A stretch of 64,000 nucleotides of DNA from Parcubacteria group bacterium (GTDB lineage: Bacteria > Patescibacteriota > Minisyncoccia > Moranbacterales > JAKLHP01), in assembly GCA_041657845.1 (NCBI GenBank), contig JBBABD010000001.1, forward strand, positions 14,255-78,254. Direction: 5' to 3'. This document shows, one piece after another, positions 1,265 through 53,325 of this stretch; the stretch's first letter is position 1; every line of letters begins with the position of its first letter. The notes beneath the pieces were generated by a model. The model was not told the DNA's origin, searched no databases, and was given only the letters and a program-made list of their open reading frames with translations. The position numbers and the translations under genes were made by a program.

Positions 1265-2215
1265 ATGAAACTAGTCGTTAATATTCCTGCCTATAACGAA
1301 GAAGAAAAAATAGCGCAAACCATAAAGGAAATACCCCGAAACATTCCCGGAATCGATGAGGTTTTTGTTCAAGTCGTGGATGACGGATCAAAAGACAAAA
1401 CCGTCCAAAAATCCCGGGAAGCCGGAGCTGATTTTGTTTTTTCCCACAATGTAAATCGCGGAATCGGAATTACTTTCCGGACTTCGGTCGGAAAAGCCCT
1501 CAGGAATGGCGCCGATATTATGGTTAACATTGATGCCGATGGACAATTTAATCCAGAAGATATTTCCAAAATAATCAAACCGATTCTGGATGGCGAAGCC
1601 GATATGGTAAGTGCCGACCGGTTTGGAAAACATAAAGCCAAAAATATTCCCTGGATAAAAAGTTTTCTTAATCGCGTGATCGCTTCTATTATTGGAAAAT
1701 TTTTGAACTACAAAATCAACGACCTCACTTGCGGATTCCGAGCCTACAACCGTGAAACCTTACTAAGACTGAATCTTCCGGGAAATTTTACCTACACTCA
1801 GGAAACTATCATTGATGCCATCGGAAAAAACCTGAAAGTAATTTGGGTTCCGGTTGAAGTTATTTATTTCGCCGATAGAGAATCACGAGTTGTAAAAAGC
1901 GTTTATAAATATATAAATAATAGCAGCCGAATAATCCTTAAAGCTGTCCGCGATGTCCGTCCGATGAAATTCTTCGGCGGTCCAGGATTAATTTTGATAT
2001 CCGCTTCGTTTATATTATTCCTAGTTTTCGCCGTAATGTATTTCCAGGATTTTAAGATTACTCCTTACCGAAACTATCTTTTGGCCGCCATCACCTTGCT
2101 TCTCATTGGTATGCAATTTGTTATCTTCGCCCTCATCGCCGATATGGTCAAATCCAGCCGCAAACTTACTGAAGATCAGATGTATTTGATCAGGAAGGAA
2201 AAGTATAAGAAATAG
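1265..2215 (+). CDS. GT2 polyprenyl-phosphate glycosyltransferase (DPM1/ArnC/GtrB-like) with a C-terminal membrane anchor.
   Basis: It has the 'NIPAYNEEE...VVDDGSKD' motif and a 'DADGQ' DxD motif. Two predicted TM helices lie at the C-terminus. Confidence 0.8.
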   Translation: MKLVVNIPAYNEEEKIAQTIKEIPRNIPGIDEVFVQVVDDGSKDKTVQKSREAGADFVFSHNVNRGIGITFRTSVGKALRNGADIMVNIDADGQFNPEDISKIIKPILDGEADMVSADRFGKHKAKNIPWIKSFLNRVIASIIGKFLNYKINDLTCGFRAYNRETLLRLNLPGNFTYTQETIIDAIGKNLKVIWVPVEVIYFADRESRVVKSVYKYINNSSRIILKAVRDVRPMKFFGGPGLILISASFILFLVFAVMYFQDFKITPYRNYLLAAITLLLIGMQFVIFALIADMVKSSRKLTEDQMYLIRKEKYKK

Positions 2216-2784: not shown

Positions 2785-3888
2785 TTGTTTAATATTTCAA
2801 AACATTTGATGAAAATTTTATTTATTTCTCGAGCTTATCCGCCGATTGTCGGCGGAATCGAGAACCAGAATTACGAACTGGGAAAATGGCTCGGGAAAAT
2901 TGCGCAGGTCAAAATAATCGCGAACAAAAAAGGCAAAATATTTCTGCCTTTATTTTTGCCTTATGCGATAATTAAATCATTACTTATTGCCAGAAAATAC
3001 GATGCCATTCTGCTTGGCGACGGAGTTTTGGGAATAGCGACCTACAAATTAAAGTTCTTCTTCCCCAAGAAACCAATAATCTGCGTCGTCCACGGACTGG
3101 ATTTGACTTTCAAATCAGCCATCTATCAAAAGCTCTGGGTAAATATATTTTTGAAGCACAGCGTTGATAAATTTATTGCGGTAGGAAATGAAACGGTCAA
3201 AGTCGCCAAGGAAAAAGGAATTACGGAAAATAAAGTGGTTTTTATTCCTAATGGAGTCGACACTGAAAAAAATATCGGGAATCATTCGCGCCAAGAGATT
3301 GAAAAAATAATTGGAGAAACGATCGAAAATAAAAAATTTCTGCTCACTTCCGGCCGGCTGGCTAAACGAAAAGGAGCCGCTTGGTTCATTCGAAATGTTT
3401 TACCCAAGCTTCCGGAAAATGTCATTTATATTATTGCCGGCGACGGACCAGACAAGGAAAACATCCATGATGCCACCAGGGAAACAAAATTGGAATCAAG
3501 AGTTAAATTATTGGGATATGTCGAGGATAATGTCAGAAATATTTTATTCAATGCTTGCGACCTATTCATTCAGCCCAATATTAAAGTTCCCAGCGACATG
3601 GAAGGATTTGGCATTTCAGTGATTGAAGCCGCTTCTTGCAAAATTCCGGTTATCGCCTCTAATCTTGAAGGCTTGAAAGATGCTATAATAAATGAAGAAA
3701 ACGGATTCTTGGTTGAATCGGAAAATACTGATGCTTGGATACGAAAAATCAATGAATTATTAGCTGACGATAATTTCCGAAAAGAATTTGGCGAAAAAGC
3801 ACGGCAGTTTGTGATTGAAAACTATAGATGGGAAATTATTGCAGAAAAGTATTTAGAAGAAATAGAAAATATCATAAAAAAATATTAA
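2785..3888 (+). CDS. GT4 (group 1) glycosyltransferase.
   Basis: The C-terminal domain carries 'EGFGISVIEAASCKIPVIASN...NGFLVE', matching the E-x7-E motif of GT4 enzymes. Confidence 0.8.
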   Translation: MFNISKHLMKILFISRAYPPIVGGIENQNYELGKWLGKIAQVKIIANKKGKIFLPLFLPYAIIKSLLIARKYDAILLGDGVLGIATYKLKFFFPKKPIICVVHGLDLTFKSAIYQKLWVNIFLKHSVDKFIAVGNETVKVAKEKGITENKVVFIPNGVDTEKNIGNHSRQEIEKIIGETIENKKFLLTSGRLAKRKGAAWFIRNVLPKLPENVIYIIAGDGPDKENIHDATRETKLESRVKLLGYVEDNVRNILFNACDLFIQPNIKVPSDMEGFGISVIEAASCKIPVIASNLEGLKDAIINEENGFLVESENTDAWIRKINELLADDNFRKEFGEKARQFVIENYRWEIIAEKYLEEIENIIKKY

Positions 3889-4020: not shown

Positions 4021-5952
4021 ATGGCATTTCGATTTATATCCTCACAATTCATCTTCTATATCTCAATAATCTTGGTTCTTTTCATTCCCGGCTATTTTTT
4101 GCTGCTCGCTATTGAATCCAAAAAGAAACTCTTTTCGTCTATTGAAAAATTTGTTTTTTCTTTCGGTTTCAGTATTATTATTGTCGACCTTCTGATGATG
4201 CTAATGGGAAGATTGAATATCCTATTCACTAAAATATCAATAATTCTAGGAATTTTTGTTTTTTCTGCTGTCTGTTTCGCGATTTATAAAATTAAGAATA
4301 AAAAACAAGGAGAAATAAAGGATAGTGCTTTTAATTTTTCTAAAAACCAAATCATCCTGATAATATTGCTCTTATTCTTAACAATTTTCATCAAAACCGC
4401 TTATCTTAAAAATTCTATTTTCCCCACCTCCACCGATCTCGGCCATCATATGTATTGGACAAAAACCATTGCCGAAACCGGGAAACTTCCAATTTATGCG
4501 GAAAGCGATATTATCCAAATTGATGGAAATTACCAAGTGAGCCAGCCGGAAAAAATTGCCGATTTTATTATCGGGGAACATCTAATTTTTGCAGCTGTGC
4601 AAATAATTTCCGGCGTTGAATTTGTCTCGTATTTTCCAATTCTAATTTTGTTTCTGGTCAATATTGTCAGCGTTTTGGCAATTTTCGTTACAACTATCCG
4701 GTTATTTGAAAATTACTCATTTGGAAAAAACGCTGGAATAATTTCACTTTTCCTGATCGGTCCGCTTTATGCAATTTCATCTTCACAGGCCAAATTTGTC
4801 AGCGGGGGAGTAATTGGCAACACGATAGGAAACTTGCTGATCCCCTTTTCGATATATTTTATTTTCCGCGCTCTCAAGGAAAAAAACTCGATTTTTCTTT
4901 CCCTATCTCTTCTCTCAACTCTCGGAATGGCTTATACCCATCATTTGACAACATTTATTTTTATCTTTATCTTTATTTTCAGCGCCATTATTTTCTCAAT
5001 TTTGAATTACAACGAAATAGGTTCTCATTTCAAGGAATGGATGAAAATAATTCTAAAACCTCAAATATTAATACTAATTTTTGTTTCCCTTCTCTTTGTT
5101 TTCGCAGTTTATATGCCAGCTTATCTCAACGCCAAGGCAGTTGGAACGGCAGTTGGCGGACCATCAAAAGATACTCGCGCCGGATTAACATTCAATCAGC
5201 TCAAGTTAACAGCAGGAGAATCGAGGATGATCTTGGGACTCGTTGGCGTTGTAATCTTAATCGCTATCAAAAAAAGAAAAAATTATGAAATTGCTTTCGT
5301 TTCTGGATGGGCTATTTCAATTTTAGTAATGTCTCTCTGGCCTCAGATCTTGCTTCTCGACCTTCCTTCCGCCAGAATCGCCAATTACGCTTCCTTTCCG
5401 CTCGCAATTTCCGGAGCCTTTGCTCTGGCTTATATTATAGATAAAATAAAATCTGCTGACGGAAAATATTATATAAATCAAAAATTGTTTTATGCTGTAT
5501 GCTTTATGCTATTTGTCTTTGCTTTAGCAAACGGATTTTACGATAATTCTCAATCCATTAAAGCCCAAAGCAATTATCAAAAAGCGCTTCAAACTGTTGA
5601 TGCTTCTGATTATCTTGGAAAAAATGCCACCAAATCAGATTTGGCAGTAAAAGACCACAACTATATTACTGCGGATTCTTGGATAAAGTTATCTTTTATG
5701 AACGGATACAATTATCCTTTCTCCAGAGGGTATTTCAAAAGATATGAAGATGAGACCAAGCCAAGGGAAATGTGCACGCTTTGGATGATTTCGACGCCCA
5801 ACACTCCGGAAGGACAAAAATGCTTCAATGATTTAGGGGTGAATTTTGCAATGGTCAATCCCCAATTCGACAGCGCCCAATTTCAAAAATCAAAAGAATT
5901 CTGGCAAGTATATGATGGGAAAGAAATAAATATTTATTACAGAAATAAATGA
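4021..5952 (+). CDS. Large polytopic membrane protein (643 aa) with a C-terminal soluble domain; possible GT-C-fold glycosyltransferase of unknown specificity.
   Basis: It has more than ten predicted TM helices and a ~160-aa extracytoplasmic C-terminal domain. Its architecture resembles other GT-C candidates in this window. Confidence 0.4.
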   Translation: MAFRFISSQFIFYISIILVLFIPGYFLLLAIESKKKLFSSIEKFVFSFGFSIIIVDLLMMLMGRLNILFTKISIILGIFVFSAVCFAIYKIKNKKQGEIKDSAFNFSKNQIILIILLLFLTIFIKTAYLKNSIFPTSTDLGHHMYWTKTIAETGKLPIYAESDIIQIDGNYQVSQPEKIADFIIGEHLIFAAVQIISGVEFVSYFPILILFLVNIVSVLAIFVTTIRLFENYSFGKNAGIISLFLIGPLYAISSSQAKFVSGGVIGNTIGNLLIPFSIYFIFRALKEKNSIFLSLSLLSTLGMAYTHHLTTFIFIFIFIFSAIIFSILNYNEIGSHFKEWMKIILKPQILILIFVSLLFVFAVYMPAYLNAKAVGTAVGGPSKDTRAGLTFNQLKLTAGESRMILGLVGVVILIAIKKRKNYEIAFVSGWAISILVMSLWPQILLLDLPSARIANYASFPLAISGAFALAYIIDKIKSADGKYYINQKLFYAVCFMLFVFALANGFYDNSQSIKAQSNYQKALQTVDASDYLGKNATKSDLAVKDHNYITADSWIKLSFMNGYNYPFSRGYFKRYEDETKPREMCTLWMISTPNTPEGQKCFNDLGVNFAMVNPQFDSAQFQKSKEFWQVYDGKEINIYYRNK

Positions 5953-6305
5953 AAAAAATAATCATCGCATTAATAATATTTCTTATTCTAAGCTTCGGTT
6001 TCCTGGCCTACGCCGAAACTCGCCAAGCGTCTCCGCAGTCCCAAAACTGGTGGGTCATTTATTTTGCAAACCCCAAAAACGACAACCTTAATTTTGTGAT
6101 TGAAAATAACAGCGACCAGACCAAATTCCACTGGGCGGTATTGAGCGATAAAGATATATTAAAAGAAGCGGATGTTGAAATAGCCAAAGGTGCGAAAAAG
6201 GAAATAAACCTTACGAAGTCCGACTTCGGAAATTTGAGCAACAAGAAAATCAGCATAACTGTAGTCGCTGATAACGAAAAAAAGGAAATATATAAAAACT
6301 TTTAA
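5949..6305 (+). CDS. Small secreted hypothetical protein (118 aa).
   Basis: It has an N-terminal signal peptide ('MKKIIIALIIFLILSFGFLAYA') and overlaps the upstream gene by 4 bp (ATGA). Confidence 0.4.
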   Translation: MKKIIIALIIFLILSFGFLAYAETRQASPQSQNWWVIYFANPKNDNLNFVIENNSDQTKFHWAVLSDKDILKEADVEIAKGAKKEINLTKSDFGNLSNKKISITVVADNEKKEIYKNF

Positions 6306-7429
6306 TGTATCTCGAATTGATGAAAAAAATACTTCTAGTCACTCGTCCAATTTGTCCGCCTTGGGATGAAGCTTCCAAGAATTTTGCCTATTATCTGGCC
6401 AAAAATATCAAAAACATCGAGGTTCATATTCTGACCAATGGAATTTTGCCAGATCTTCCGCAAAGCATTATCCAGGAAAATATCTACGATTCAAGCAGTT
6501 TCGGATTATCTCAAAAAATGAAACTCATTAAGTTTCTCCGAAAAAATAGAGGGACTTTCGATATCGTTCACTATCTTTTCACGCCGACAAAACTTAATTC
6601 GTTTTTAATAAAAACTTTTGCCAAATTAACCAAGGGAAAAACGATTCAAACTATCGCTACTCTCCGAGAAGATTTGTACTCCGATGAAGATTTAAAAAAG
6701 ATACTGTTCGCTGATTTGATAACCACCTACTCTGATTATTCCAAAAATGAATTAGAAAGATTGGGATTTGGCAGCACAAAGAGAATTTATCCCGGAATTG
6801 ATATTGATTTATTTTACCCCGCTCCAAAAAGTTTGGAACTTTTGAAAAAATTCGGTTTTGCGTCGGATGATTTTGTAATTAATTTTACCGGCGAATATAC
6901 CCGGCTTGGAGCGATTGATGATGTAATTAATAGTTTTATTGAAATATCCAAAAAGATACCCAACGCCAAATTATCGCTGGCCGTTCGGATAAAAAACGGC
7001 AATGACGCGCAAAAGAAAAATGAAGTAGCAGCAACATTAAAAAATAATAATATTTTCAACAGGGTTTCTTTTCAGTATGACGGAAGCTATGAGATGCAGG
7101 ACATTTTTAATCTTTGCGACGTCAGCATTTTTCCCGTCCAAAATATGAAAGGAAAATTCGATGTGCCTCTGGCCATTATTGAAGCAATGTCCTGCGAAAA
7201 ACCAGTGATCATTTCCGATTTGCCGATTCTCAGAGAATTCGCAAATGACCAAAATTCTGTTACAATAGAAGCAGGAAAAGCGAAACAGTTATCCGAAAAG
7301 ATTTTGGATGTTTATGAATATAAAGATCGTTATGTTGAAATTGGCAAGAATGCCAGAAAATACGTCGTAGAAAATTTCGACATCAAAAAAGTCGCAGAAA
7401 AATATCAAGAGATTTACAAAAATTTATAA
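6305..7429 (+). CDS. GT4-like glycosyltransferase.
   Basis: The C-terminal block 'LAIIEAMSCEKPVIISD' is typical of GT4 nucleotide-sugar binding domains. Confidence 0.6.
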   Translation: MYLELMKKILLVTRPICPPWDEASKNFAYYLAKNIKNIEVHILTNGILPDLPQSIIQENIYDSSSFGLSQKMKLIKFLRKNRGTFDIVHYLFTPTKLNSFLIKTFAKLTKGKTIQTIATLREDLYSDEDLKKILFADLITTYSDYSKNELERLGFGSTKRIYPGIDIDLFYPAPKSLELLKKFGFASDDFVINFTGEYTRLGAIDDVINSFIEISKKIPNAKLSLAVRIKNGNDAQKKNEVAATLKNNNIFNRVSFQYDGSYEMQDIFNLCDVSIFPVQNMKGKFDVPLAIIEAMSCEKPVIISDLPILREFANDQNSVTIEAGKAKQLSEKILDVYEYKDRYVEIGKNARKYVVENFDIKKVAEKYQEIYKNL

Positions 7430-7499
7430 GTCCTATAAGTCAAGTATGCCTAATATAACTAGTCTGTCTAACAGCAAAAAAGAATTTCAAACCCCGAAT

Positions 7500-8939
7500 A
7501 TGAAAATACCGGTTATTTTGCATGCCTCGGAAAATCTGCTTCCTAATGAAGAAACTTTTGAGCAATTGGAATATATTGCCGAAGATGAAAGATTTTTTCA
7601 TCATATTGCCGCTATGAGCGACGTTCATCCCAAAAAAGGACGAAAAGCTCCGACTGGAACTGTAGCAGCTAGCGAGCACTTCCTCTTTCCTCAAATTAAT
7701 GACACCGCTCCCAATTGCGGAATGCGGTTCCTTAAAACCGATTTGGATGAAAACAATACCCCGCCGGAAAAAATTGATGAACTTTTCAAGGAATTAGTGA
7801 AAGTTATTCCGACCAAAAAACTGCAAGGCGTTCCGATTCCCTATCAAATGGCCGTAGATATCGCTAGAGACGGAATTCATCCGCTTACTGAATATTTCCA
7901 GACCAGAACCAAAAATGAAATTGAAAATTCCTATGAAGGAGGAAATTTTTTTCGCAATGATATTCCGACTGTGCGGGAAATTTTAGATGTTGTGCCGAAA
8001 TTATTTCTGAAAATCGCCCAACATCGGCTGGGAATTTTGGGCGCGGCGGGAAATCATTTTTTGGATTTAATGAAAATTACTGAAATAAAAAATTCGGAAG
8101 TAGCGCAGAAATTCGGCTTGCGTCCCGGGCAATATATTTTTCTTATGCACACCGGATCGGGACTAGTCGGACAATATGTTTCCTATATGTACACTCCAAA
8201 AGCAAAAGAGCACAAAAGCCAGAAAATGATGCTGGAACTGGGAATCTCCCTTTTTGACAGCCAGCTCAAAAAAGTTTACAAAAATCTTTACCAAAAAATA
8301 AAGAAACATGAGAAATTGAAAAATTTCTTTGGATATGAAGATTCCAGCCTTGAAGGAAGAATGTTTATTAATGCCCATAGAGCTTCGGCTAATTTTGGCT
8401 TTGCCAACCGAACCGTGCTCACCGATCAAATAGACAAAGCTATGGAAAGAGTTTTTGGCCGGCAAGTTAGTTTGGATATGCTTTACGATTCTCCGCACAT
8501 TTCAATCGAAAAGGAAAATCATTTCGAAAAAGATGTCTGGGTTCATCGAAACGGATCGGTTCGTGCCAATGGCTCGGCAAGAATGCAGCACCATCCGATT
8601 TTCAAAGAAACCGGAGAACCGGTTTTTATTCCTTCTTCAATGGCTACTCCGGCTTATCTTGGCGTCGGAACGGATGAAAACGTTTCTACTTTCTTTTCCG
8701 CCGGACACGGAACCGGAAGAAGAAGAAATCCGAATCCGGATACTCCCGAAAATAAGAAAAAACTTTTTGACAAAGTTAGAGAGAAAAAAGTTAAATTATA
8801 TAATGCCCAATCCAAAGAGGTCATCCTGCAAGACAGCGCGTATTACAAAGACGTGGAAGAAGTAATCAGCGGGATGGTGGAAAACAGGATAATAAATGTA
8901 GTCGCCAAAATGGAACCGGTGGCGGTGCTAATGTATTAG
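7500..8939 (+). CDS. RtcB-like RNA ligase family protein (divergent).
   Basis: The N-terminus 'MKIPVILHASENLL' resembles the RtcB N-terminus. Other matches are 'AAMSDVHPKKG' (metal-binding PDxHxGxG block), 'NCGMRF', 'VHRNGSVRA', 'IPSSMATPAYL' and the C-terminal 'HGTGRR' (the HGAGR block of RtcB). Confidence 0.55.
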   Translation: MKIPVILHASENLLPNEETFEQLEYIAEDERFFHHIAAMSDVHPKKGRKAPTGTVAASEHFLFPQINDTAPNCGMRFLKTDLDENNTPPEKIDELFKELVKVIPTKKLQGVPIPYQMAVDIARDGIHPLTEYFQTRTKNEIENSYEGGNFFRNDIPTVREILDVVPKLFLKIAQHRLGILGAAGNHFLDLMKITEIKNSEVAQKFGLRPGQYIFLMHTGSGLVGQYVSYMYTPKAKEHKSQKMMLELGISLFDSQLKKVYKNLYQKIKKHEKLKNFFGYEDSSLEGRMFINAHRASANFGFANRTVLTDQIDKAMERVFGRQVSLDMLYDSPHISIEKENHFEKDVWVHRNGSVRANGSARMQHHPIFKETGEPVFIPSSMATPAYLGVGTDENVSTFFSAGHGTGRRRNPNPDTPENKKKLFDKVREKKVKLYNAQSKEVILQDSAYYKDVEEVISGMVENRIINVVAKMEPVAVLMY

Positions 8940-8947
8940 AAAATTCA

Positions 8948-9559
8948 ATGAAAATAATCTCGATCTCCGGCCTCGACGGCTCAGGAAAATCTACTCAAAT
9001 CCAGCTATTAAAAAAATATCTAGAATCGCAAGGCAAGCGGGTTTTTTATTTTCACGCGATTGAGTTTGGAATCGCCAACAAAATTTCTTCCCATCATTGC
9101 TGTGATTATGGAAAAGAAAATGAGAACAAAGAGAAAAGCGTAACCAGGTCAAATAAACTGGGAATAATCCTTCGAAAGATTTTTTTAAGAATAGACTTCT
9201 GGCGTTTCAAAAAATTGTTTAAAAAATTAGAAAAAGAACATTTTGATTTTATTTTAAGCGACAGATTTTTTTACGATTCCTTGATTAATATTAGCTATTT
9301 GGAAAATTGTGGCATTGAAAATTGGAAATTTATTGAAAATTGGAAATTGAAAATTGAAAATTTATCAATCTACCTCCAAACAAATCCAAAAATAATAATG
9401 CAACGCGAAAGAAAACCGGATCAAGGAATTGAATATTTGGAAAAGAAAAAAGAAATTTATGATAAATACGCCGAAATTTGGAATTTGAAAATTATTGACG
9501 GAAACCGAACGCAGGAAGAAGTTTTCGAGGATGTGAAAAGGTCTTCAGGCGTTGCCTAA
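8948..9559 (+). CDS. P-loop nucleoside/nucleotide kinase, thymidylate-kinase-like.
   Basis: It has the Walker A motif 'ISGLDGSGKSTQ' and 'LSDRFFYDSLI', which corresponds to the DRY/LID region of Tmk-like kinases. There is a Cys-rich insertion and an internal in-frame nucleotide tandem repeat at 9300..9365. Confidence 0.55.
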   Translation: MKIISISGLDGSGKSTQIQLLKKYLESQGKRVFYFHAIEFGIANKISSHHCCDYGKENENKEKSVTRSNKLGIILRKIFLRIDFWRFKKLFKKLEKEHFDFILSDRFFYDSLINISYLENCGIENWKFIENWKLKIENLSIYLQTNPKIIMQRERKPDQGIEYLEKKKEIYDKYAEIWNLKIIDGNRTQEEVFEDVKRSSGVA

Positions 9560-9564: not shown

Positions 9565-9810
9565 TTAAACAAAGACGGATCCTTTCCCGTTTCCGTTTCT
9601 TCTTGTTGATAGTTTCCCGTCAACAAAAAATGTAATTTCCCCTCTCGCAGTGAGAACAGGATCTCCCGTATGATACGAATAGATTCTTCTGCATACCGGA
9701 CAAACACAGGCATGAATCCAGCTCTGACTATTTAACTTTCCAACCTGAATTCTCACTTTATCAGAAATGCCGACACAGACCTCGGATCTACATTCGCATA
9801 CAATTTCCAT
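9565..9810 (-). CDS. Small zinc-ribbon protein (81 aa).
   Basis: An 'aaggaggg' ribosome-binding site lies 7 nt upstream of the ATG on the minus strand. Two Cys pairs are present ('CECRSEVC' and 'CVCPVCRR'). GC content is higher than the flanks. Confidence 0.45.
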   Translation of the reverse strand: MEIVCECRSEVCVGISDKVRIQVGKLNSQSWIHACVCPVCRRIYSYHTGDPVLTARGEITFFVDGKLSTRRNGNGKGSVFV

Positions 9811-9890: not shown

Positions 9891-11459
9891 ATGAAAAGCA
9901 ACCTCGCCAAATCAGCTTTGTGGGTTACGTTTTCGGAGATATTGTTCAATCTCTCCGGTTTTGTGATTCACTCTGTTTTGGGAAGATTTTTGGGGCCGGC
10001 AGATTATGGAAGATACGGAATCATCATCACGCTTACAACGATGGTTATCATTCTGATTGGAAACGGAATTCCGACCGCCATGGCCAAATATATCAGCGAA
10101 TATTTTGAAATCAATCCCAGAATGGTAAAAACGATCAAGAAACAGGCGATTGTTTTGCAAACTATTATCATCGGAGGAATAACAATTTTATTTTTCTTTT
10201 CCATTCCCCTCATCTGCAAAGCGCTTGGCGATCCGACTCTTATTCCGCTATTTAGAATATCCACGCTAATAATCCCCGCTTTCGCCGGTGCTTCTTTCTA
10301 TTTTTCATACTATACCGGCCTTCACAGGTTCAATCTGCAAGCCACTCTCAAAACACTCAGATCGATTTTCCGAATAGTATTTGTCATCGGACTGGCTTAT
10401 TTTTGGAAAGTTGAGGGTTCGATTGTTGGATATATTATAGCTCCCGGAGGCGTTTTTTTGGTAGCTTTTTTGATTGATAAATTTTACATTGGGCCAAAAC
10501 TCAAAAAACAAGAAGAATTGCAAAAAAATATAGCTAGCGATAATCGTTCGGGATCCTTCGCCGCGGCGGCTCAGGATGACGTAAATTTTGACTGGCGAAA
10601 ACTTACCAACTACGCTTGGCAAATTGTTGTATTCTTTTTGGCCTATGAACTTTTGATCAGCATTGACCTATATTTAGTAAAAGCAATTCTCCGAGACGAC
10701 AATTTGACCGGAATTTATAACGCTGCGCTCACTGTTGGACGAATTCCCTATTATATTTTCTACGCTATGACAATTTTTCTCCTTCCCATGGTTTCTAAAT
10801 CCACCTCCCAAAATAACCCGGAAGAAACCAAAAAAATCCTCGCTCAATCGCTCAGAATTATGCTGCTCCTCCTCGTTCCAATGATCGTCCTTATGTCAAT
10901 TTATGCCAAACCGATTTTAATTGACTTCTACGGCGCAAAATATGCCCTTGGGGCGTTTCCGATGTCGATCTTGGAATACGGCATCGGATTTTTGACTATT
11001 TTCTATGTAATGAGTTTCGCCCTGAACGGCGCCGGAAAAACAAAAATGGTAATGAAAATATCAATTGTCGGTTTTTTGATAAACGCAATTTTAAATTATA
11101 TTTTAATCAAAAAATATTCCATAACCGGATCGGCTATCGCCACTTCCATTGCCTCTTTTATTGTCGCTATTTGGATACTATATTATTTGTGGCGTGATTT
11201 CGGAGCTTTGATAAAAATAAAAACATTTTTGAAAACAATTTTCGCCGCAGCGCTAATGTATTTAGTCTCGCTGTTATTTTCAAAAGGAGAAATAGCCTTT
11301 ATTGCTTGGTCGATTATTCTTTTCGTTTTCTATCTTTTTGTCCTATATATCTTAAAAGAAATCAAGAAAGAAGATCTGGAAATTGTCAAAACATTGATAT
11401 TCAGAAAGAAAAAAGAAGAAGTAGAACAAGAATTATCCGGGAATGAGCCTAGCGCTTGA
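9891..11459 (+). CDS. Wzx-like polysaccharide biosynthesis protein / lipid-linked oligosaccharide flippase (MOP superfamily).
   Basis: 522 aa with ~14 TM helices. The N-terminus 'SALWVTFSEILFNLSGFVIHSVLGRFLGPADYGRYG' is typical of the Polysacc_synt family. Confidence 0.7.
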   Translation: MKSNLAKSALWVTFSEILFNLSGFVIHSVLGRFLGPADYGRYGIIITLTTMVIILIGNGIPTAMAKYISEYFEINPRMVKTIKKQAIVLQTIIIGGITILFFFSIPLICKALGDPTLIPLFRISTLIIPAFAGASFYFSYYTGLHRFNLQATLKTLRSIFRIVFVIGLAYFWKVEGSIVGYIIAPGGVFLVAFLIDKFYIGPKLKKQEELQKNIASDNRSGSFAAAAQDDVNFDWRKLTNYAWQIVVFFLAYELLISIDLYLVKAILRDDNLTGIYNAALTVGRIPYYIFYAMTIFLLPMVSKSTSQNNPEETKKILAQSLRIMLLLLVPMIVLMSIYAKPILIDFYGAKYALGAFPMSILEYGIGFLTIFYVMSFALNGAGKTKMVMKISIVGFLINAILNYILIKKYSITGSAIATSIASFIVAIWILYYLWRDFGALIKIKTFLKTIFAAALMYLVSLLFSKGEIAFIAWSIILFVFYLFVLYILKEIKKEDLEIVKTLIFRKKKEEVEQELSGNEPSA

Positions 11460-11531: not shown

Positions 11532-12269
11532 ATGAATAGTGAAAAAATATCTGTCGTCATCCCGTGTTTCAACGAGGAAAAAAACATCCAAAGCAATATC
11601 AAAAAAATATTCAAATACCTCGAGGGAAATTTCGAAAATTTCGAAATAATAGCGGTAAATGACGGAAGCACCGATAAAACCATAGAGGAACTGAAAAATT
11701 TGCAAAACGAAATTCCGCTTGCCATAATGGACAATTACGAAAACGAAGGCAAGGGAAAAGTAGTATGCGACGGGATACTCAAAAGCAACAATAATATTGT
11801 GATGTTTTTAGATGCCGATTTGGCCATTCCCATTGAAGAGCTGGAAAAATTTATTGTCGAAATTAACAAGGGATATGACATAGCGATTGCTTCACGCTTT
11901 GTTCCTGGAGGAAAAGTGATCCAAAAAGTTCTCTGGTACCGCATAATAATGGAAAAAGCTTTCAGAATCATTCGAACGATAATAATCAATAATTATAAGG
12001 TCCGAGATACTCAGTGCGGCTTTAAAGTATTCAGAAGAGATGCGGCTATGAAAATTTTTCCGCTTATGACTATCAAGCGCTTTGCTTTTGATTCGGAAAT
12101 CATATTTCTAGCCGGAAAATATAAATTTAAAATAAAGGAGCTTCCAATAACCCTTCAGAATCCGATCAGAAGCCATGTCAGAATATTTCGCGATCCTTTT
12201 AATATGCTTTGCGATCTTTTCAAGATAAGGATTAATGATGCAAAAAGAAAATATAAATTAAAAAAATAA
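11532..12269 (+). CDS. GT2 polyprenyl-phosphate glycosyltransferase (soluble DPM1/GtrB-like).
   Basis: It carries 'VVIPCFNEEKNI...IIAVNDGSTDKT' and 'FLDADL' (DxD) motifs. Confidence 0.75.
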   Translation: MNSEKISVVIPCFNEEKNIQSNIKKIFKYLEGNFENFEIIAVNDGSTDKTIEELKNLQNEIPLAIMDNYENEGKGKVVCDGILKSNNNIVMFLDADLAIPIEELEKFIVEINKGYDIAIASRFVPGGKVIQKVLWYRIIMEKAFRIIRTIIINNYKVRDTQCGFKVFRRDAAMKIFPLMTIKRFAFDSEIIFLAGKYKFKIKELPITLQNPIRSHVRIFRDPFNMLCDLFKIRINDAKRKYKLKK

Positions 12270-14036
12270 ATGTTTTCTTTAGAAAAAATTAAAGAAAAAA
12301 AATGGGAATTAATCTTCGTTTTGTCCCTGATATTTTTGGGGATTTTTTTGCGTACTTTCCATTTTTCCAAATGGCTCCACTTCGAAATCGACCAGTCTTA
12401 TGATTATTTGATGGTTTCTCCCGCAGTAGAAAAAGGGATTGGAAATCTTCCGCTTCTAGGACCGACTGCCGGCGGCGGAAGAGCGCTCCGGCTCGGTCCG
12501 GCTTTCTATTATATGGAATATTTGAGCGCCAAAGTTTTCGGAAATAACCCGACCGGGCATGCCATGCTCGTTCTGATCCTTTCTATTTTTTCTCTTCCAA
12601 TATTTTATTTATTTTCCAGAAGATACTTTTCCAAAAACATTTCTATCGGACTTCTGGCAATTTTTTCCACTTCGGTTTATATGGTTCTCTATTCCCGCTT
12701 TTCTTGGAGTCCGAACGTGCTTCCGTTTTTAACGCTTCTGACTTTTTACGCCTTGCTTCAAAGCGTCAGCGAGAAAGAAAAAAACAAAGACCGATGGTTT
12801 CTATTTTTCGCTTTTTTAATCGGAGTTTCGACTCAGATTCATTTCAATTCATTTTTCATTATCCCGGCAGTAGCAATTATATTTTTACTGATTAAACGCC
12901 CTAAATTCAAATTGAAAACTTGGGGCTTGGCTATCGCAATATTTCTGTTCTTGTATTCTCCAGTGATTGTTAACGAAATAAAAACTGGCGGACAAGATAT
13001 CGCTTTTTTTCAAGAAAAAATATCTGGGGAATCAAGCGATGAAACAACCCAAGATCCAGGAAAGGATGACAAAAAATCCGGAGAAAAACTTTTTCAAAAT
13101 TTCCGATATCACGCTTATGAATATTTTTTGATTATTAGCGGAAATGACACAATTAACGGCAACCGGCCCAAGGGATATGATTTGGGACTCACTTGCAAAA
13201 CTTGCAGCGACAAACTGCCCTGGAGAACATCCGGATTGATATTGTTCCTCTTTGGAACAATATTGCTTGCTTGCAAACTAACAAAAGAAAAAGATAGTGA
13301 AAGAAAAAATTTCTTGCTGATATCAGCTCTTTGGCTTGCGGCTTCATTTCTTTATTTTTTCGCCATAACTTACGACGGACTTTATATTTATCCACGATTT
13401 TTCCTGGTCGTTGCGCCTCTGCCTTTTATTCTTCTCGGACTCATATTTGAAAGCCTTGGCGCTGATAAAAACAGAATAAGCCTTCTGGCTTTTGCGGCTG
13501 CGATATTATTTTTGTCCTTTGCAAACACGCAAAAATTAAAAGATGATTTCAGCCAGCTAAAAAATGCTCCCATCCAAGACAAGAAAGTGGAAAAAGAAGA
13601 TGTTTTCCCTAATAATTATCGCGTCACGCAGGAGCAGCAGATTCTTATCACGGATTATATCGCATCCGAATTCAAACAAAATAGTTATCCTGTTTACATA
13701 AAAACCATTCATGAATATGAACCGGCATTTTGGTATTATTTGGGACAGAAGGGAATTTATTATTACGGAAAAATGAAACCCGAGACAGTTTATAAACAGG
13801 GAAATTATTTCTTGGTTCTCTATTCCTCCGACAGCAACAAGGAAATAAAAGAATATGGGGACACTTTCAATATTGCCGAAGAAAAAGAATTCGGCGTCCT
13901 TACTGTTTTTCAGTTAAATCCGAAACCGGCATCTATCACCGGCGAAAGACAAAGCGATTCGAAAAGAGAAACACCCGTTCAAGCGCAACAAATTTCCAAG
14001 CTTCTAACCTGGAAAAAATTATTTTCAAAGCAATAA
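12270..14036 (+). CDS. GT-C-fold membrane glycosyltransferase (GT39/PMT-ArnT-like), paralog 1.
   Basis: It has 12 or more TM helices. The first-loop signature is 'FLRTFHFSKWLHFEIDQSYD...LPLLGPTAGGG..LRLGPAFYY'. A C-terminal soluble domain follows. Confidence 0.6.
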   Translation: MFSLEKIKEKKWELIFVLSLIFLGIFLRTFHFSKWLHFEIDQSYDYLMVSPAVEKGIGNLPLLGPTAGGGRALRLGPAFYYMEYLSAKVFGNNPTGHAMLVLILSIFSLPIFYLFSRRYFSKNISIGLLAIFSTSVYMVLYSRFSWSPNVLPFLTLLTFYALLQSVSEKEKNKDRWFLFFAFLIGVSTQIHFNSFFIIPAVAIIFLLIKRPKFKLKTWGLAIAIFLFLYSPVIVNEIKTGGQDIAFFQEKISGESSDETTQDPGKDDKKSGEKLFQNFRYHAYEYFLIISGNDTINGNRPKGYDLGLTCKTCSDKLPWRTSGLILFLFGTILLACKLTKEKDSERKNFLLISALWLAASFLYFFAITYDGLYIYPRFFLVVAPLPFILLGLIFESLGADKNRISLLAFAAAILFLSFANTQKLKDDFSQLKNAPIQDKKVEKEDVFPNNYRVTQEQQILITDYIASEFKQNSYPVYIKTIHEYEPAFWYYLGQKGIYYYGKMKPETVYKQGNYFLVLYSSDSNKEIKEYGDTFNIAEEKEFGVLTVFQLNPKPASITGERQSDSKRETPVQAQQISKLLTWKKLFSKQ

Positions 14037-14050
14037 ACTGTCTTGAATCG

Positions 14051-15589
14051 CTATTTCTGATTTCCCCACCGATAAACCAGTACATCTCCCCTCACCTGAG
14101 GATTGCTGACTTTTGAAAAGTTTTTTTCGACATAATCGACAGCTTCACTGGAAATATAAGTTTCGTCATTGGTGGAAATAATAAACCATCCGCTTGGATT
14201 TTGACTGGCAATGTCCTGGATCTCGGCAACTGATAATTTTTCCTTGGAAAGTTCTCCTCCAAAATCAAAAACTTTTACTTTCGCTCCGCTCCAATAATAG
14301 TTTCGAAAATTTCTGGTTATCAGCGCATCTCCATCTTTTTTGTATTTTTTGAAATAAGTGAAAATTTTTCGATAATTGGGGTTGCTGGACTGGGATGTTT
14401 GGTTATAAGTATTGTCGCTGGTTTCAAAAAAGTAAGCATAATTAGGAAGAATCAAAAGTGAAATAATAATGGTCGTGAGATAGGCTTTCTTTCCGTAATT
14501 TTTCAAGTTTTCTTTGAAAAATTCAGCGGCAAAATATATTCCCGAGGCAATAAGGATTATTCCGAAAGATTTTATGAAAAAGATATATTGATTTCCGACA
14601 TTTCTTCCCCACAAAAAAATCGCGGAAAAAAGAACAACAAAGAAAGACATTGCCAGAAAACTTCCTTCTTTTGACATTTTTTGCTTTTTGGAAATAAAAT
14701 ATATTCCCAAAATAATAAATATGAAAGCTAGGATTCCGTTGGTGTAATCAGAAAGTGAAATTCTTGCGTATTCGAAGTGGCTGGTAAAGAAAGTCAATCC
14801 GGCTGTAAACGAAACTACTGTTTTGGGAATTGCAATAATAGCTCCAATAATCCCTAAAATGCTTAGCCCGAAAATTACCGAATATTTGTTCAGGTGCGAC
14901 TTGTTTTTGTTCCAATTCAAAACAGTCCAAAAAAGCAGGTAAAATCCGACTGCAAAAACGATATTGGCCGTGAGCTGGTGGGTCGCTAGGCTCAAAATTC
15001 CCACAGCAAGAGCGGGAATTAGGTATAGTGGGTTAATATCCCATTTTTCACTAATCTTCTTCAGAAAACCGATTTTGCCCTTATAATTGCTCTCCAGGAA
15101 ACGAAATAAAAGCCAAGAGAGAGCGAGATAAACCGGCAAAAACATTGCGTACATCCGAAGTTTCCTATCAAACTCAATTCCGGAAGTACTGATAGCGAAA
15201 AGAAAAGCGCCAATTAGGCCTATCATCTTCTTTTTGGTAAAATCGGTTGCCACAAAATAAATTAGAGCTATTGTTAAGATTCCCCATAAAACGCTTATTG
15301 TTCGCGCCGTACTTTCCGTTGGAGGGAGAAAATTAAAAAGCTCGGCCACCTGCCATTTATATACTCCAGCGCGCTCATCTCTAGCTTGAAAAACGTTATC
15401 GGCATTCACTTTTTCAAAATTAAAATCCCAATTTTGCCAAATACCGGTTTTGAAATAAGCATAGGAAGAATTTATGTCCAAAAATTCATCTGCCACGAAA
15501 GAATTATTTCCCAACTTATAGAATCGGAGAAACGCTCCGAGCAGAATTATAATTATCAGCGCTGTGTAAATATTTTTTCTAGAAAACAT
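14051..15589 (-). CDS. GT-C-fold membrane glycosyltransferase (ArnT/GT83-GT39-like).
   Basis: The N-terminal TM is followed by 'FLRFYKLGNNSFVADEFLD' (the DE motif of lipid-carrier-dependent glycosyltransferases). It is polytopic with a C-terminal soluble domain. Confidence 0.6.
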   Translation of the reverse strand: MFSRKNIYTALIIIILLGAFLRFYKLGNNSFVADEFLDINSSYAYFKTGIWQNWDFNFEKVNADNVFQARDERAGVYKWQVAELFNFLPPTESTARTISVLWGILTIALIYFVATDFTKKKMIGLIGAFLFAISTSGIEFDRKLRMYAMFLPVYLALSWLLFRFLESNYKGKIGFLKKISEKWDINPLYLIPALAVGILSLATHQLTANIVFAVGFYLLFWTVLNWNKNKSHLNKYSVIFGLSILGIIGAIIAIPKTVVSFTAGLTFFTSHFEYARISLSDYTNGILAFIFIILGIYFISKKQKMSKEGSFLAMSFFVVLFSAIFLWGRNVGNQYIFFIKSFGIILIASGIYFAAEFFKENLKNYGKKAYLTTIIISLLILPNYAYFFETSDNTYNQTSQSSNPNYRKIFTYFKKYKKDGDALITRNFRNYYWSGAKVKVFDFGGELSKEKLSVAEIQDIASQNPSGWFIISTNDETYISSEAVDYVEKNFSKVSNPQVRGDVLVYRWGNQK

Positions 15590-15740
15590 ATGAGCAAATT
15601 TACAATTTTCAATTTACAATTTTCAAACAATTTTCAATTTCCCAATTAATTAATTTTCAAACATTTGGAAATTTAGTCATTGTTTCGCCAGCCGGCGAAT
15701 TCATTGTAAATTGATCATTGTTCATTGAAAATTATAAAGA
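15590..15740. promoter_or_regulatory. AT-rich intergenic region with short tandem repeats between two minus-strand GT-C genes; probable promoter region.
   Basis: Tandem units 'tttacaattttcaa'/'acaattttcaa'/'ttaattttcaaaca' and 'cattgtaaattg'/'cattgttcattg' are visible. Confidence 0.25.
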
Positions 15741-17519
15741 TTATTCTTCTTCCTCATCTTCACTTCCTGTGCTGTCGAATATTTCCTGCCAAGTATAGCG
15801 TTTTGGAACGCCTGCAGCGCTTTTGGATCCGCCAGAGTCTTCGAATATTTCTTCTTCCGCATTTATCGCTTCCGGCTTGGGAGCAAGCTGAATTACCATC
15901 AAAGTTCCGAACTGTTTTTTGTTTACATAATCGTAGGAGATAGAATAATCTTCCAAATGGCCTTCCAAATTGGAATCGGTTGGATAAACCAGAAAATAAT
16001 TTCCATTTCTATAGACAGTATGGCCGTTAACCGCGTCCCTGAAATCGCTTTCCGGAATATCTCTCTGGCTCAGATCAAAAAGCAAAGACCTTCGATAAAA
16101 AGAACTGCTGTTGAGATATACTGGATATTTATTTTTTTGATAAAAACTTTCAATATAATTCGTTATCATATACTGCTGTTCCATTGTCACTCGCTGTCTT
16201 TCCTTCAAAATTCTGTCAGCGGAAACTTTTACCGTTTTATAGGGAGCATTTTTGAGTTCAGTAAATCTTAAATATGTCCTGTATAAGCTTGACGCAGAAA
16301 ATCCCAATATAACAATTAATGCAACTGCGACAGCGATTCTTTGGGGAAAAATTTTCCCGATAAAATCTAATGTGAATCCCAAAAATATGAAAGGCAAAGC
16401 AGAAACCAGAAGCCAGAAGCGGGGAGAAATATCAAATGCTAAAGGCGTGAAAAGTCCAAATACGGCAATAAACCAGAGAGAAATCAGAACAATAAAGTCT
16501 TTTTTTCTTAAGTCCTTTTCAAAAACTAAGTTCTTAAGCATCAGCAAAAGACCCGAGGAAAATAATATAGCTGCCACTATTCCATATGGAAGTTCTTTTT
16601 TACATCCTTGGTCGCATAGAATATTCAGATTGGGATTCCGAAGAACGCGAGGGAGTTCGGAATTCTGAGAGCTGAGAATGAGAAAATGTCCGACAGAATT
16701 TTCGCTGTAATTCTTGACTATTTTCGCAAGAAGGCTTTTTTCGCTTTTTCCCTCCGTTTTTCCTGAAACAACTTCCTTAAATTCTTTGAAATTATCTCCT
16801 CCGGTTTTTATTTCATTCAAAATCACCGGGAAATTCATAAGCAGTATAATACCAATCGCTCCGGTCCAATAAGCCCACTTTATTTTCGGCCTTTTGATGA
16901 TCAGAAACGCCGCCGTGATGACCGGAAAAGAAACATAAGCCAAAAAATGAAGCTGGGTGGCGACTGATATGAAAAAAGCCGCCGCCAAAAGCCACTTTCC
17001 TTTGTTCTTTTCTTCCCTATCGACTGCTCTAAGCAATGAATAGATTGCAAGAATAGTGAATAATGGAAGCGGATTTGGATTCCAGCTGAAACGGGAATAC
17101 ATTACTAGAAATAGCGAGGTTGAAAACAAAAGAAGCAGGCCGATGGAAGTCCATTTATTAAAATACCTTCTGACTAAAATATAGAAAGCGGGAATAGCCA
17201 AAATTCCGAATATCATTATTATGGTTGCTATCCCAGAAGGAGTATTTCCAAAAACTAGTGAGCTTAAATATTTGAAGTAATAAAAAACCGGTCCAAGCCT
17301 TAAAAACGATCCAGCCGCTTTCGGTCCCAAAAGAGGCAACGCTCCCGGCCCTTCTTTGATTGCCAAGTCGATTACTTTGGCATCGCGCGACTGATCCAAC
17401 TCAAAATGAAGCCAATCGGAAAAATGATAGAAACGCAGAAACGCGCCTAGCAAAAGTACGACCAAAAAAACGATATAAAAGTACCTTTTCTTGAAAGAAT
17501 TGAAAGCTTTATTTTTCAT
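15741..17519 (-). CDS. GT-C-fold membrane glycosyltransferase (GT39-like), paralog 2.
   Basis: It has the signature 'FLRFYHFSDWLHFELDQSRD...LPLLGPKAAGSFLRLGPVFYY' and an acidic C-terminal tail 'SEDEEEE'. Confidence 0.6.
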   Translation of the reverse strand: MKNKAFNSFKKRYFYIVFLVVLLLGAFLRFYHFSDWLHFELDQSRDAKVIDLAIKEGPGALPLLGPKAAGSFLRLGPVFYYFKYLSSLVFGNTPSGIATIIMIFGILAIPAFYILVRRYFNKWTSIGLLLLFSTSLFLVMYSRFSWNPNPLPLFTILAIYSLLRAVDREEKNKGKWLLAAAFFISVATQLHFLAYVSFPVITAAFLIIKRPKIKWAYWTGAIGIILLMNFPVILNEIKTGGDNFKEFKEVVSGKTEGKSEKSLLAKIVKNYSENSVGHFLILSSQNSELPRVLRNPNLNILCDQGCKKELPYGIVAAILFSSGLLLMLKNLVFEKDLRKKDFIVLISLWFIAVFGLFTPLAFDISPRFWLLVSALPFIFLGFTLDFIGKIFPQRIAVAVALIVILGFSASSLYRTYLRFTELKNAPYKTVKVSADRILKERQRVTMEQQYMITNYIESFYQKNKYPVYLNSSSFYRRSLLFDLSQRDIPESDFRDAVNGHTVYRNGNYFLVYPTDSNLEGHLEDYSISYDYVNKKQFGTLMVIQLAPKPEAINAEEEIFEDSGGSKSAAGVPKRYTWQEIFDSTGSEDEEEE

Positions 17520-17605
17520 AAATTTGCCTGTATAATTGTTTTGTAGGCTATTTTAAATATTAGGCTATTTTTAACATTTTAGCAATAACCAAATATATCA
17601 AAAAA

Positions 17606-19957: not shown

Positions 19958-19978
19958 ATAATAATTCATAACATTTTT

Positions 19979-21613: not shown

Positions 21614-21622
21614 AAAATCCTT

Positions 21623-22402
21623 ATGATTAAAAATATATTTGAAAAAATTATTACTTTTTTCGGGAAAAATAAAAAAACAATTATCCTTGTCATTTTGCTA
21701 ATAGTTGCCGGAGGATTATATTATGAATTTATTTATCTCGCCAAGCCGAATATTGAAAACAAAAAATCAATAGAAGCCGCCCTTGTCGCCGATATTCACG
21801 TTGGTCCAGAAAAAAAGGGGCATAGTGAAAATGCCATTGTCCACCCCAAAGAATACAAAAATAATTTGAAACCGCTTATTGATTCAAAACCAGATTTGAT
21901 TATTACCTTGGGAGACAATGTAAATGACAATAAAAAATGCCACCCGTACGCCGATGATTTAAAAAAATATCTTTCTAAATTCAATGTACTTTGGGGCAAG
22001 GGAAATCATGACAAAGATTGTTTTCCTGTTTTTAGCGAACAAGCCTATTATTATCATGATTATAGCAATGCTGGATGGAGAATTGTTATGCTGGATCACG
22101 ACATTGATATTGACCCTGATGAACTCAATTGGCTCCGCGAAACATTGAAAACCGACAAGAAAGTTTTAATTGTCACTCATGTTCCCTTTTTCTCTCCCAG
22201 CCGAGATGAAAACGCCCTGCTTCCGCAATATACTGATGCGGAAAAAGTCATTTCCGAAAGCGGAAATGTGAAATATGTTTTTATGGGACATTTGCACAGC
22301 CGCCTTTGGGACAAAGAATATAACGGTGTGCATTATTACATCATTCCTTCCGTCTCCGGAGACGAATATCCAAAGTATTTTATGAAACTAACCTTAAATT
22401 AA
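21623..22402 (+). CDS. Membrane-anchored metallophosphoesterase (calcineurin-like).
   Basis: It has an N-terminal TM helix and the motifs 'ADIHVG', 'LGDNVND', 'GKGNHD', 'VTHVPFF' and 'GHLH'. Confidence 0.75.
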   Translation: MIKNIFEKIITFFGKNKKTIILVILLIVAGGLYYEFIYLAKPNIENKKSIEAALVADIHVGPEKKGHSENAIVHPKEYKNNLKPLIDSKPDLIITLGDNVNDNKKCHPYADDLKKYLSKFNVLWGKGNHDKDCFPVFSEQAYYYHDYSNAGWRIVMLDHDIDIDPDELNWLRETLKTDKKVLIVTHVPFFSPSRDENALLPQYTDAEKVISESGNVKYVFMGHLHSRLWDKEYNGVHYYIIPSVSGDEYPKYFMKLTLN

Positions 22403-22407
22403 AAACA

Positions 22408-53290: not shown

Positions 53291-53325
53291 AACTATCCAA
53301 ATATTCCGGAAGTTTCAGAATCCAT
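53277..53325. repeat. Cassette-boundary core repeat (variant 2), copy.
   Basis: 'aaattaattttcaaaactatccaaatattccggaagtttcagaat' matches 54965..55010 exactly. Confidence 0.6.

Follow-up and report, generated by a model that had tools for sequence, protein, structure and literature searches.

What is a gene for an RtcB-family RNA ligase doing among genes for envelope sugars? The question arises from a 64,000-nucleotide stretch of DNA of a Parcubacteria group bacterium (contig JBBABD010000001.1, positions 14,255 to 78,254; hereafter the window), in which a divergent RtcB-like gene is followed at once by a gene for a thymidylate-kinase-like (Tmk-like) P-loop kinase. A preliminary description of this pair, made from the letters of the sequence, saw in it the logic of RNA healing and repair, perhaps tied to toxins or defence, and found its setting in a glycan locus unexpected. 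Our analysis leads to a different picture. The RtcB-like gene, the kinase gene and the glycosyltransferase gene directly upstream, which we call GT4b, form a conserved three-gene core in an operon for the biosynthesis and export of a membrane glycoconjugate, where their companions are a GT2 glycosyltransferase, a second GT4, membrane proteins resembling GT-C and a flippase of one of two types, Wzx or LPG_synthase_TM. This suggests that the RtcB-like and Tmk-like genes are fixed, conserved members of an envelope sugar-polymer cluster, and that the RtcB family has a second, undescribed job.

The family assignments of the preliminary description hold for both genes. In its 479-residue version the RtcB-like protein matches PF01139 in Pfam with E=6.9e-66 (223.7 bits), in an alignment that takes in positions 1-424 of the 426 in the profile. 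Among solved structures its closest relative is the RtcB of P. horikoshii (E=1e-34 by sequence, 1.4e-51 with a clade profile), and its AlphaFold model (predicted local distance difference test, pLDDT, 76.5; predicted template modelling score, pTM, 0.83) matches exclusively RtcB structures in Foldseek, at template modelling (TM) scores of 0.76-0.80 and 24% identity. It thus shares Pfam family and fold with the RtcB ligases of P. horikoshii, E. coli and human (RTCB), from which it differs in being only ~24-28% identical to canonical RtcB and in carrying a further helical insertion, ~30-45 residues long, behind the strand of H234. The gene had been placed at 7500..8939, with 480 residues; of this the end stands, while the start most likely lies 54 nucleotides further upstream, at 7446, giving 497 instead of 479 residues (7446..8939, + strand). 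We prefer this start because homologues are mostly 496-500 residues long and because the 18 additional N-terminal residues align with a conserved stretch, N[IL]..S..KKE.QT..M, and are modelled by AlphaFold as beta-strands. Close homologues that bear a name all belong to Patescibacteria or Moranbacteria. The stop codon at 8939 is separated from the ATG of the kinase, at 8948, by the 8 nucleotides originally reported.

How firmly does this pair belong to its surroundings? A GTDB scan with one genome per species gave 242 relatives, and we compared the best 80 loci, nearly all labelled Moranbacteria, Parcubacteria or Patescibacteria, mapping the gene order of the block by tblastn with ten window proteins. 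The recurring order is GT2 - GT4a - DUF1616 - small open reading frame (ORF) - GT4b - RtcB - Tmk-like - Wzx. In the window the pair lies, as had been said, amid glycosyltransferase genes, with GT4b (6305..7429, +; Glycos_transf_1 E=3.3e-15, in the C-terminal half only) upstream and a Wzx/MOP-family polysaccharide flippase (9891..11459, +; Polysacc_synt E=2.3e-24, also MurJ and MatE) downstream. Far from being unexpected, this is the rule: GT4b lies directly upstream of the RtcB-like gene in all 76 of the 76 loci that have upstream DNA (median gap 53 nucleotides), so that in this RtcB branch the glycan setting never varies and is no accident of insertion. The linkage of the kinase to RtcB likewise extends to related genomes, with the kinase downstream on the same strand in 69 of the 80 loci (median gap 99 nucleotides) and Wzx downstream of the kinase in 68 (median gap 130 nucleotides). 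The gap between RtcB and kinase is at most 150 nucleotides in 45 loci and exceeds 1 kilobase (kb) in 7, through insertions of 1-6.5 kb. Eleven loci show no kinase; five of them end too soon, and six truly lack both kinase and Wzx. Where the block is split, RtcB remains with GT4b, and the kinase remains with Wzx and PMT_2, as in the genome behind L012, where the kinase stands in the order CysRS (cysteinyl-tRNA synthetase) - Tmk-like - Wzx - ... - PMT_2. Because sequence identity with the window proteins drops to 49% for RtcB, 42% for GT4b and 37% for the kinase, and because outside the block the genes differ in whether, how far away and in which orientation they occur, the conservation of the block does not reflect general collinearity. 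Some records carry surprising labels ('Bathyarchaeia archaeon' for L077; 'uncultured Bdellovibrionales' for many third-party annotation (TPA) assemblies, L003, L004 and L007 among them); as all have the block typical of Moranbacteria, these contigs were perhaps mis-binned or mislabelled.

The same partners reappear at much greater distance. We searched 1.84 billion cluster representatives exhaustively, and only 87 reach E<=1e-30; the window clade is condensed there into a few representatives of 46-50% identity, and beyond them similarity declines through sparse RtcB-like clades of 27-40% identity, one of whose representatives (P0255) is from Calditrichia. In P0246 (L088) GT4, RtcB and an overlapping Tmk-like gene are followed by LPG_synthase_TM, an epimerase and a sulfotransferase; in P0250 (L169) an overlapping GT4, RtcB, an overlapping Tmk-like gene, LPG_synthase_TM and DUF2142 lie together, with ugd and rmlABCD-type genes alongside; in P0259 (L170) an overlapping GT4 precedes RtcB and Tmk-like, with LPG_synthase_TM and a GT2 on the other strand; and L103 reads gt4a - gt4b - RtcB - Tmk-like. 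The order is rearranged in P0248 (L085), where Tmk-like, a B12 radical SAM gene and gt4b occupy the minus strand and LPG_synthase_TM - RtcB - a gene for a 577-residue protein the plus strand. In P0251 (L081-82) and P0253 (L083) we find gt4a - gt4b - methyltransferase - radical SAM - LPG_synthase_TM (overlapping) - RtcB - a gene for a 522-residue, weakly PMT_2-like (GT-C-like) protein; in P0257 (L087) the stop of GT4 overlaps the start of RtcB, with ugd nearby; and P0247 (L171) has RtcB - Wzx - two PMT_2 genes. A Tmk-like gene thus stands beside the RtcB-like one in the distant clades L088, L169, L170, L103 and L085, and in distant clades the flippase-like LPG_synthase_TM protein takes the position of Wzx. 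The overlaps of stop and start codons suggest that the proteins are made in a fixed stoichiometry. The GT4s next to the distant RtcB-like genes (L081, L085, L087, L088, L103) match the GT4b of the window at E=1e-37 to 1e-86 and the other GT4s of the window at ~1e-7 at best, and because of this difference we conclude that this branch of RtcB is accompanied by one particular GT4 subfamily.

As a control we took canonical RtcB loci (GxDIxCG, HxGSRG with R238, C-terminal KG) from the same metagenome scan, dereplicated. GT4, Tmk-like or LPG_synthase_TM genes lie within 300 nucleotides in 0 of ~18 canonical loci, as against 18 of the 50 non-canonical ones. The loci were sorted by one alignment column (Asp at -3), by which the divergent L170 was mis-sorted as the sole 'canonical' exception.

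Three further observations concern these relatives. A B12-binding radical-SAM enzyme of ~500 residues occurs near the RtcB-like gene in L081, L085 and L103 (27% identity between L081 and L085). A group of high-GC RtcB clades (0.54-0.69; L084, L094, L095, L126, L135, L136, L153), of the VDKGIN/HTGSGAVG and HTGSERLG types, directly adjoins a GT4 from another subfamily, which in most cases follows at +2 to +28 nucleotides downstream, and may represent a second, independent association of RtcB with GT4. Finally, the metagenome contig L145 (0.51 G+C) has two tandem RtcB genes, 27 nucleotides apart.

Does the RtcB-like protein still look like an enzyme, and of what kind? Residue states were read from a sequence alignment to P. 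horikoshii RtcB, whose numbering is used unless stated otherwise; the roles of the active-site residues are those established with structures and mutants of that protein (PMC9745838, PMC3973293, PMC8051266). Retained and invariant in the clade are D65, C98, N202, H203, F204, H234, H329, H404, R408 and Y451. Among these are the metal ligands Cys98, His203, His234 and His329 (PMC9745838), which correspond to C91, H204, H235 and H351 of the window protein and bear out its place in the family, and the nucleophile His404 of HGxGR, which is H421 in the HGTGR of the window. As in canonical RtcB, therefore, the protein has a Cys and three His as metal ligands, the Asn-His-Phe, the HGxGR nucleophile and the stacking Tyr. 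Two of the three motifs named in the preliminary description are present as named, NCGMR and HGTGR; the first, given as PDxH, actually reads SDVH.

The residues that recognise RNA and guanine present a different picture. In canonical RtcB, Glu206 contacts N1/N2 and Lys480 contacts O6 of the guanine, and in P. horikoshii E206A and K480A are each inactive without Archease (PMC3973293); in the window clade both are altered, and invariantly so, E206 to D (GNHFLD) and K480 to M (C-terminus VLMY). The 5'-OH strand is contacted by Asn202, Arg238, Arg190, Gln194 and His242, of which Asn202 holds the attacking hydroxyl and Arg238 clamps the first two phosphodiesters during sealing, its E. coli counterpart mutant R189A sealing 200-fold more slowly (PMC8051266). 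Of these five N202 alone is retained: R238 is G (HTGSGL.GQY) and H242 is Q, both invariantly, Q194 is R, and R190 is not conserved. As judged from the alignment, the altered base pocket is confined to the window clade and those closest to it. The metal-2 ligand Asp95, three residues before the Cys, is displaced as well: the window has NDTAPNCG, in which Ala aligns with Asp95 and the Asp stands two residues nearer the N-terminus. This displacement may, on the sequence evidence, be a tolerated variant; it is common in other RtcB clades that retain the C-terminal KG, and we dropped it as a marker of the window clade for that reason. Loss of R238 was likewise considered as a marker of GT4-linked RtcBs and is not a clean one, L087 and L103 having Arg there; it is a property of the window clade only. 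In some relatives with the same gene context the active site itself is eroded: P0246 (L088) and P0250 (L169) have SSHF or GSHF for GNHF and NHE[IL]GK for HGxGR, and in P0247 (L171) the histidine nucleophile is replaced by Tyr. These three are possibly inactive or re-purposed paralogues.

The kinase (8948..9559, +; 203 residues) has the thymidylate-kinase fold. It covers the full Pfam Thymidylate_kin profile at 41.8 bits (gathering score 27) and falls short of the NCBIfam equivalog for dTMP (thymidine monophosphate) kinase, TIGR00041, with 45.1 bits against a cut-off of 83.25; its homologues are labelled 'hypothetical protein' by NCBI. Its clade conserves the P-loop LDGSGKST with a preceding Asp, SDR(Y/F)FYDS and a basic lid with arginines, all features it shares with Tmk, the closest solved one being S. 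tokodaii ST1543 (2plr). The REP loop of bacterial Tmk and its thymine-binding motif, S..AYQ, are unrecognisable in the kinase alignment. Whether the kinase belongs with the polynucleotide kinases had been posed as a question, and the answer is no: it is nearest to dTMP kinases and not to T4 polynucleotide kinase (PNK), Pnkp or Clp1. The Cys-rich insertion noticed at the outset is there, at residues ~39-64; it is variable or absent in homologues and is modelled at pLDDT <50, as disordered. This insertion, the score below the equivalog cut-off, the unrecognisable REP loop and S..AYQ motif, and the fixed position next to a flippase in a glycan operon set the protein apart from Tmk. A search for a second, canonical tmk by tblastn, with a T. 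maritima fragment and an approximate E. coli Tmk as queries, recovered only the Tmk-like gene itself from the window and ~1.3 megabases (Mb) of related loci, this being the portion of each genome that the search covers. We also considered that the kinase might recycle an unusual nucleoside monophosphate (NMP) matched to the altered base pocket, an idea weakened by the occurrence of Tmk-like genes beside clades that retain E206 and K480.

How might these observations fit together? Because the gene neighbourhood is conserved, we place GT4b, the RtcB-like protein and the kinase in one pathway, the synthesis and export of an envelope glycoconjugate; and because the catalytic core is intact, the RtcB-like protein presumably still uses His-NMP chemistry. 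We therefore favour the reading in which glycoconjugate synthesis has recruited it as a ligase that works by nucleotidyl transfer, and give this reading a probability of roughly 0.42. Its substrate would be not broken RNA but a glycan or glycolipid intermediate, such as a phosphorylated sugar, alcohol or lipid head group. The enzyme would take NMP from a nucleoside triphosphate (NTP) onto His421 and pass it to a phosphomonoester, giving an X-O-P-P-nucleoside intermediate, which would then be attacked by a hydroxyl to yield a phosphodiester and release NMP; alternatively it might stop at the intermediate activated by nucleoside diphosphate (NDP). The kinase might make the phosphomonoester for activation or re-phosphorylate the released NMP, GT4b would act on the same small molecule as the RtcB-like protein, and the flippase and GT-C proteins would carry the product outward. 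Chemistry of this type is familiar from other enzymes. In cytidine diphosphate (CDP)-glycerol/TagF-type teichoic acid synthesis and in the CdsA route a phosphomonoester is activated as an NDP derivative, a hydroxyl attacks and NMP is released, which is chemically equivalent to steps 2 and 3 of RtcB. The likeness to TagF, to CdsA with the phosphatidyltransferases, and to GalT is one of function only, since the fold of the RtcB-like protein is unrelated to theirs and there is no sequence relationship.

More specifically, and with somewhat less confidence, we propose that this RtcB branch has left nucleic-acid repair and become an NTP-dependent phosphomonoester-hydroxyl ligase or a nucleotidyltransferase acting on a sugar, alcohol or lipid phosphate. 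It is part of the same tentative proposal that the module would make, for example, a phosphodiester-linked, teichoic-acid-like or phosphoglycolipid envelope structure, and that its carriers would be Moranbacteria and other uncultured low-GC lineages. In the literature that we searched, of which the RNA-repair survey of Burroughs and Aravind was not a part, we found nothing linking RtcB to glycosyltransferase clusters or to bacteria of the candidate phyla radiation (CPR). To the extent checked, then, the association of RtcB with glycan genes is new, within a well-known family, and carries a substantial chance of a new function.

Several points weigh against this proposal. To our knowledge, RtcB-family enzymes act on nucleic acids only, and compact CPR genomes mix unrelated genes in operons. 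The case for the function of the RtcB-like protein is one of gene context, and the statistics of that context are modest: Fisher tests give p=0.014, or 0.047 without the window clade, values that are indicative only, L170 having been mis-sorted and the sister clades having been chosen by similarity rank and not at random. These sister clades, rare low-GC metagenome sequences, could moreover descend from a single ancestral operon. Because most GT4-linked sister clades retain E206 and K480, and L087 and L103 also have Arg in the R238 column, the residue changes of the window clade are not a shared signature of GT4 association. Six of ~75 evaluable genomes have RtcB with no kinase nearby and with unrelated convergent genes after it. 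As for the kinase, it could be the dTMP kinase of the cell: the ~1.3 Mb of related DNA yielded no other Tmk-like gene, and in L169 it lies 3 kb from rmlABCD-type genes for sugars linked to thymidine diphosphate (dTDP).

The main rival of our reading is a housekeeping explanation, in which a true tRNA/rRNA ligase, with lineage-specific holding of RNA and nucleotide, and a divergent dTMP kinase are merely co-transcribed with glycan genes; in a variant, the kinase is linked to the locus after all, supplying dTDP and thymidine triphosphate (dTTP) for dTDP-sugar donors. The completeness of the RtcB fold and of its catalytic residues agrees with this, as do the Tmk features of the kinase (P-loop Asp, DR(Y/F), lid arginines), its being the only such gene found, the rmlABCD-like genes that adjoin the module in L169, the presence of a pyrH-like uridine monophosphate (UMP) kinase gene in the glycan region of the window, and the interruptions of the block, namely the insertions that split RtcB from kinase in seven loci and the six loci without a kinase. 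Yet hitch-hiking leaves unexplained why one GT4 subfamily should accompany RtcB-like genes at 27-40% identity, through rearranged gene orders and with overlapping stop and start codons, when canonical RtcB loci have no such neighbours. It also fits poorly with the loss of R238 and of both guanine contacts in the window clade, with P0246, P0250 and P0247, which keep the context while replacing N202 or even the histidine nucleophile, and with a kinase that scores 45 against an equivalog cut-off of 83 and whose homologues go without a name at NCBI. On balance we consider the housekeeping explanation, variant included, somewhat less likely than recruitment to glycan synthesis.

Another explanation keeps the recruitment to glycan synthesis and shortens the chemistry. 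The RtcB-like protein would perform only the first two RtcB steps, as a nucleotidyltransferase that works through a GalT-like His-NMP and supplies GT4 with an NDP-activated donor made from a sugar- or alcohol-phosphate. Loss of the R238 sealing clamp with retention of the His-NMP machinery is what one would expect of such an enzyme, and so is the constant presence next door of a GT4, an enzyme that requires an NDP-sugar as donor. Against it, the window clade retains N202, the holder of the attacking hydroxyl, and GT4s release NDP rather than NMP, which would leave no obvious role for an NMP-kinase-like protein. We regard it as improbable.

Least of all survives the healing-and-sealing module of the preliminary description, in which the kinase would prepare RNA ends for sealing by RtcB, possibly in response to a toxin or in defence: RtcB membership, tight linkage and the toxin-antitoxin and Fic genes of the window (53548..56212) speak for it, but it is highly improbable given that the kinase groups with dTMP kinases, that RtcB joins 3'-P to 5'-OH (PMC3973293, PMC8051266), so that a 5' kinase would be unneeded and would by this chemistry block ligation, that Archease, RtcA, RtcR, PrfH, Hen1 and phosphatase partners were all missing from the window ORFs scanned with Pfam, that the block holds only glycan genes, that PADLOC matched no family to any of seven block proteins (RtcB-like, kinase, both GT4s, DUF1616, small ORF, Wzx), that the AbiE and Fic genes lie ~45 kb off, outside the syntenic block, and that on splitting of the block the kinase goes with the flippase and not with RtcB. 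The same holds more broadly, since no Archease, RtcA/RtcR, PrfH or Rsr/Y RNA was found in the conserved block of the 80 loci, and the glycosyltransferase and flippase partners are unlike those of canonical RtcB operons (Archease, RtcA, RtcR, PrfH). The resemblance to T4 Pnk + Rnl and to bacterial Pnkp/Hen1 stops at a kinase gene adjoining a ligase gene: those systems combine a 5' kinase/3' phosphatase with an ATP-dependent 5'-P/3'-OH ligase, whereas our pair has a 3'-P/5'-OH ligase, a kinase unlike PNK, and neither a phosphatase nor a methyltransferase as partner.

The remaining genes of the block accord with its glycan character. On the plus strand around the RtcB-like gene, a series of tightly spaced genes begins with gt2a (1265..2215, +; PF00535 E=1.1e-19), a GT2 resembling the polyprenyl-phosphate-sugar synthases AglJ and PpgS (115.7 and 98.5 bits in NCBIfam, each under its cut-off), which is found upstream in the same order in 50 of the 80 loci. 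It is followed by gt4a (2785..3888, +; Glycos_transf_1 E=1.7e-37, Glyco_transf_4), present in 63 of the 80 and with an orthologue in the distant locus L081 (33% identity, E=2e-50), and by a large membrane protein with an N-terminal DUF1616 (4021..5952, +; PF07760, 32.3 bits against a cut-off of 31.6), located between gt4a and the small ORF in 60 loci. The small ORF (5949..6305, +; 118 residues) overlaps the stop and the start of its neighbours, has no Pfam family and only weak NCBIfam matches, over residues 1-22, to short signal-peptide-bearing families; its position is conserved in 58 of the 80 loci. The best solved relatives of GT4b, all weak, are BshA, PglA, PimB' and sucrose-phosphate synthase. 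Beyond Wzx the block passes into a less conserved tail, variable in position and orientation, with a GT2 (11532..12269, +; PF00535; 42/80 loci) and a PMT_2-type GT-C membrane glycosyltransferase (12270..14036, +; PF13231; 35/80 loci). In the 331-nucleotide gap between kinase and Wzx the minus strand holds an 81-residue ORF (9565..9810) with six Cys (C5, C7, C12, C35, C37, C40), zinc-ribbon-like, with a strong AAGGAGG ribosome-binding site ahead and no Pfam family; in many related loci the gap is too short for it.

The window as a whole, of ~31-40% G+C, is almost wholly given over to envelope-glycan genes: many GT4s and GT2s, six PMT_2/GT-C proteins, two flippases, Ugd, an epimerase and methyltransferases. 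Neither tRNA genes nor Rfam families turned up when all of it was scanned, hence no gene for an RNA substrate lies nearby; promoter and terminator scans were uninformative (52 sites where 42 were expected, and 24 where 16 were). The six PMT_2/GT-C transferases, an unusually large expansion, are paralogous and start at 12270, 15741, 17606, 19979, 22408 and 57293 (spans 12270..24075 and 57293..58726); two calcineurin-like phosphoesterases (21623..22402 and 24093..24929) are interleaved with them. The glycan region also contains an LPG_synthase_TM protein (24954..25901), a SPASM radical-SAM enzyme (30876..32252) and, between ugd and an oxidoreductase, an amino-acid-kinase-family protein of 239 residues (28615..29334, -), PyrH/UMP-kinase-like by size and family, and so a second nucleotide-kinase-type gene amid sugar genes. 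Outside the conserved block, G+C falls to 0.28-0.32 across 42-56 kb, a region with an IS200/Y1 transposase (47348..47767, -) and a mobile or conflict cluster (52778..56212, -) of an AlbA_2/helix-turn-helix (HTH) protein, an AbiEii toxin with its AbiEi antitoxin, and a Fic protein. Further along, an 878-residue protein with an LCAT/PGAP1-type lipase domain (60530..63166, -) may have a bearing on lipid scavenging or remodelling in the CPR cell.

What would it mean if a branch of the RtcB family does work on something other than nucleic acids? No RtcB enzyme would have been seen before to use such a substrate. The deeply conserved partnership with one GT4 subfamily, a Tmk-like kinase and flippases can be read in two ways: envelope biosynthesis may draw on a second chemistry of the family that has gone unrecognised, or the ligation of RNA may be coupled to the production of envelope glycans in a way not so far described. 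Either way, the module is a small, expressible set of three enzymes, open to direct testing. As a corollary, reconstructions of metabolism from these genomes may be led astray by the automatic labels 'tRNA-splicing ligase RtcB' and 'thymidylate kinase'. More generally, CPR bacteria (Patescibacteria) are episymbionts, whose surface structures mediate attachment to the host and are almost entirely uncharacterised, and it is on this cell surface that the finding bears.

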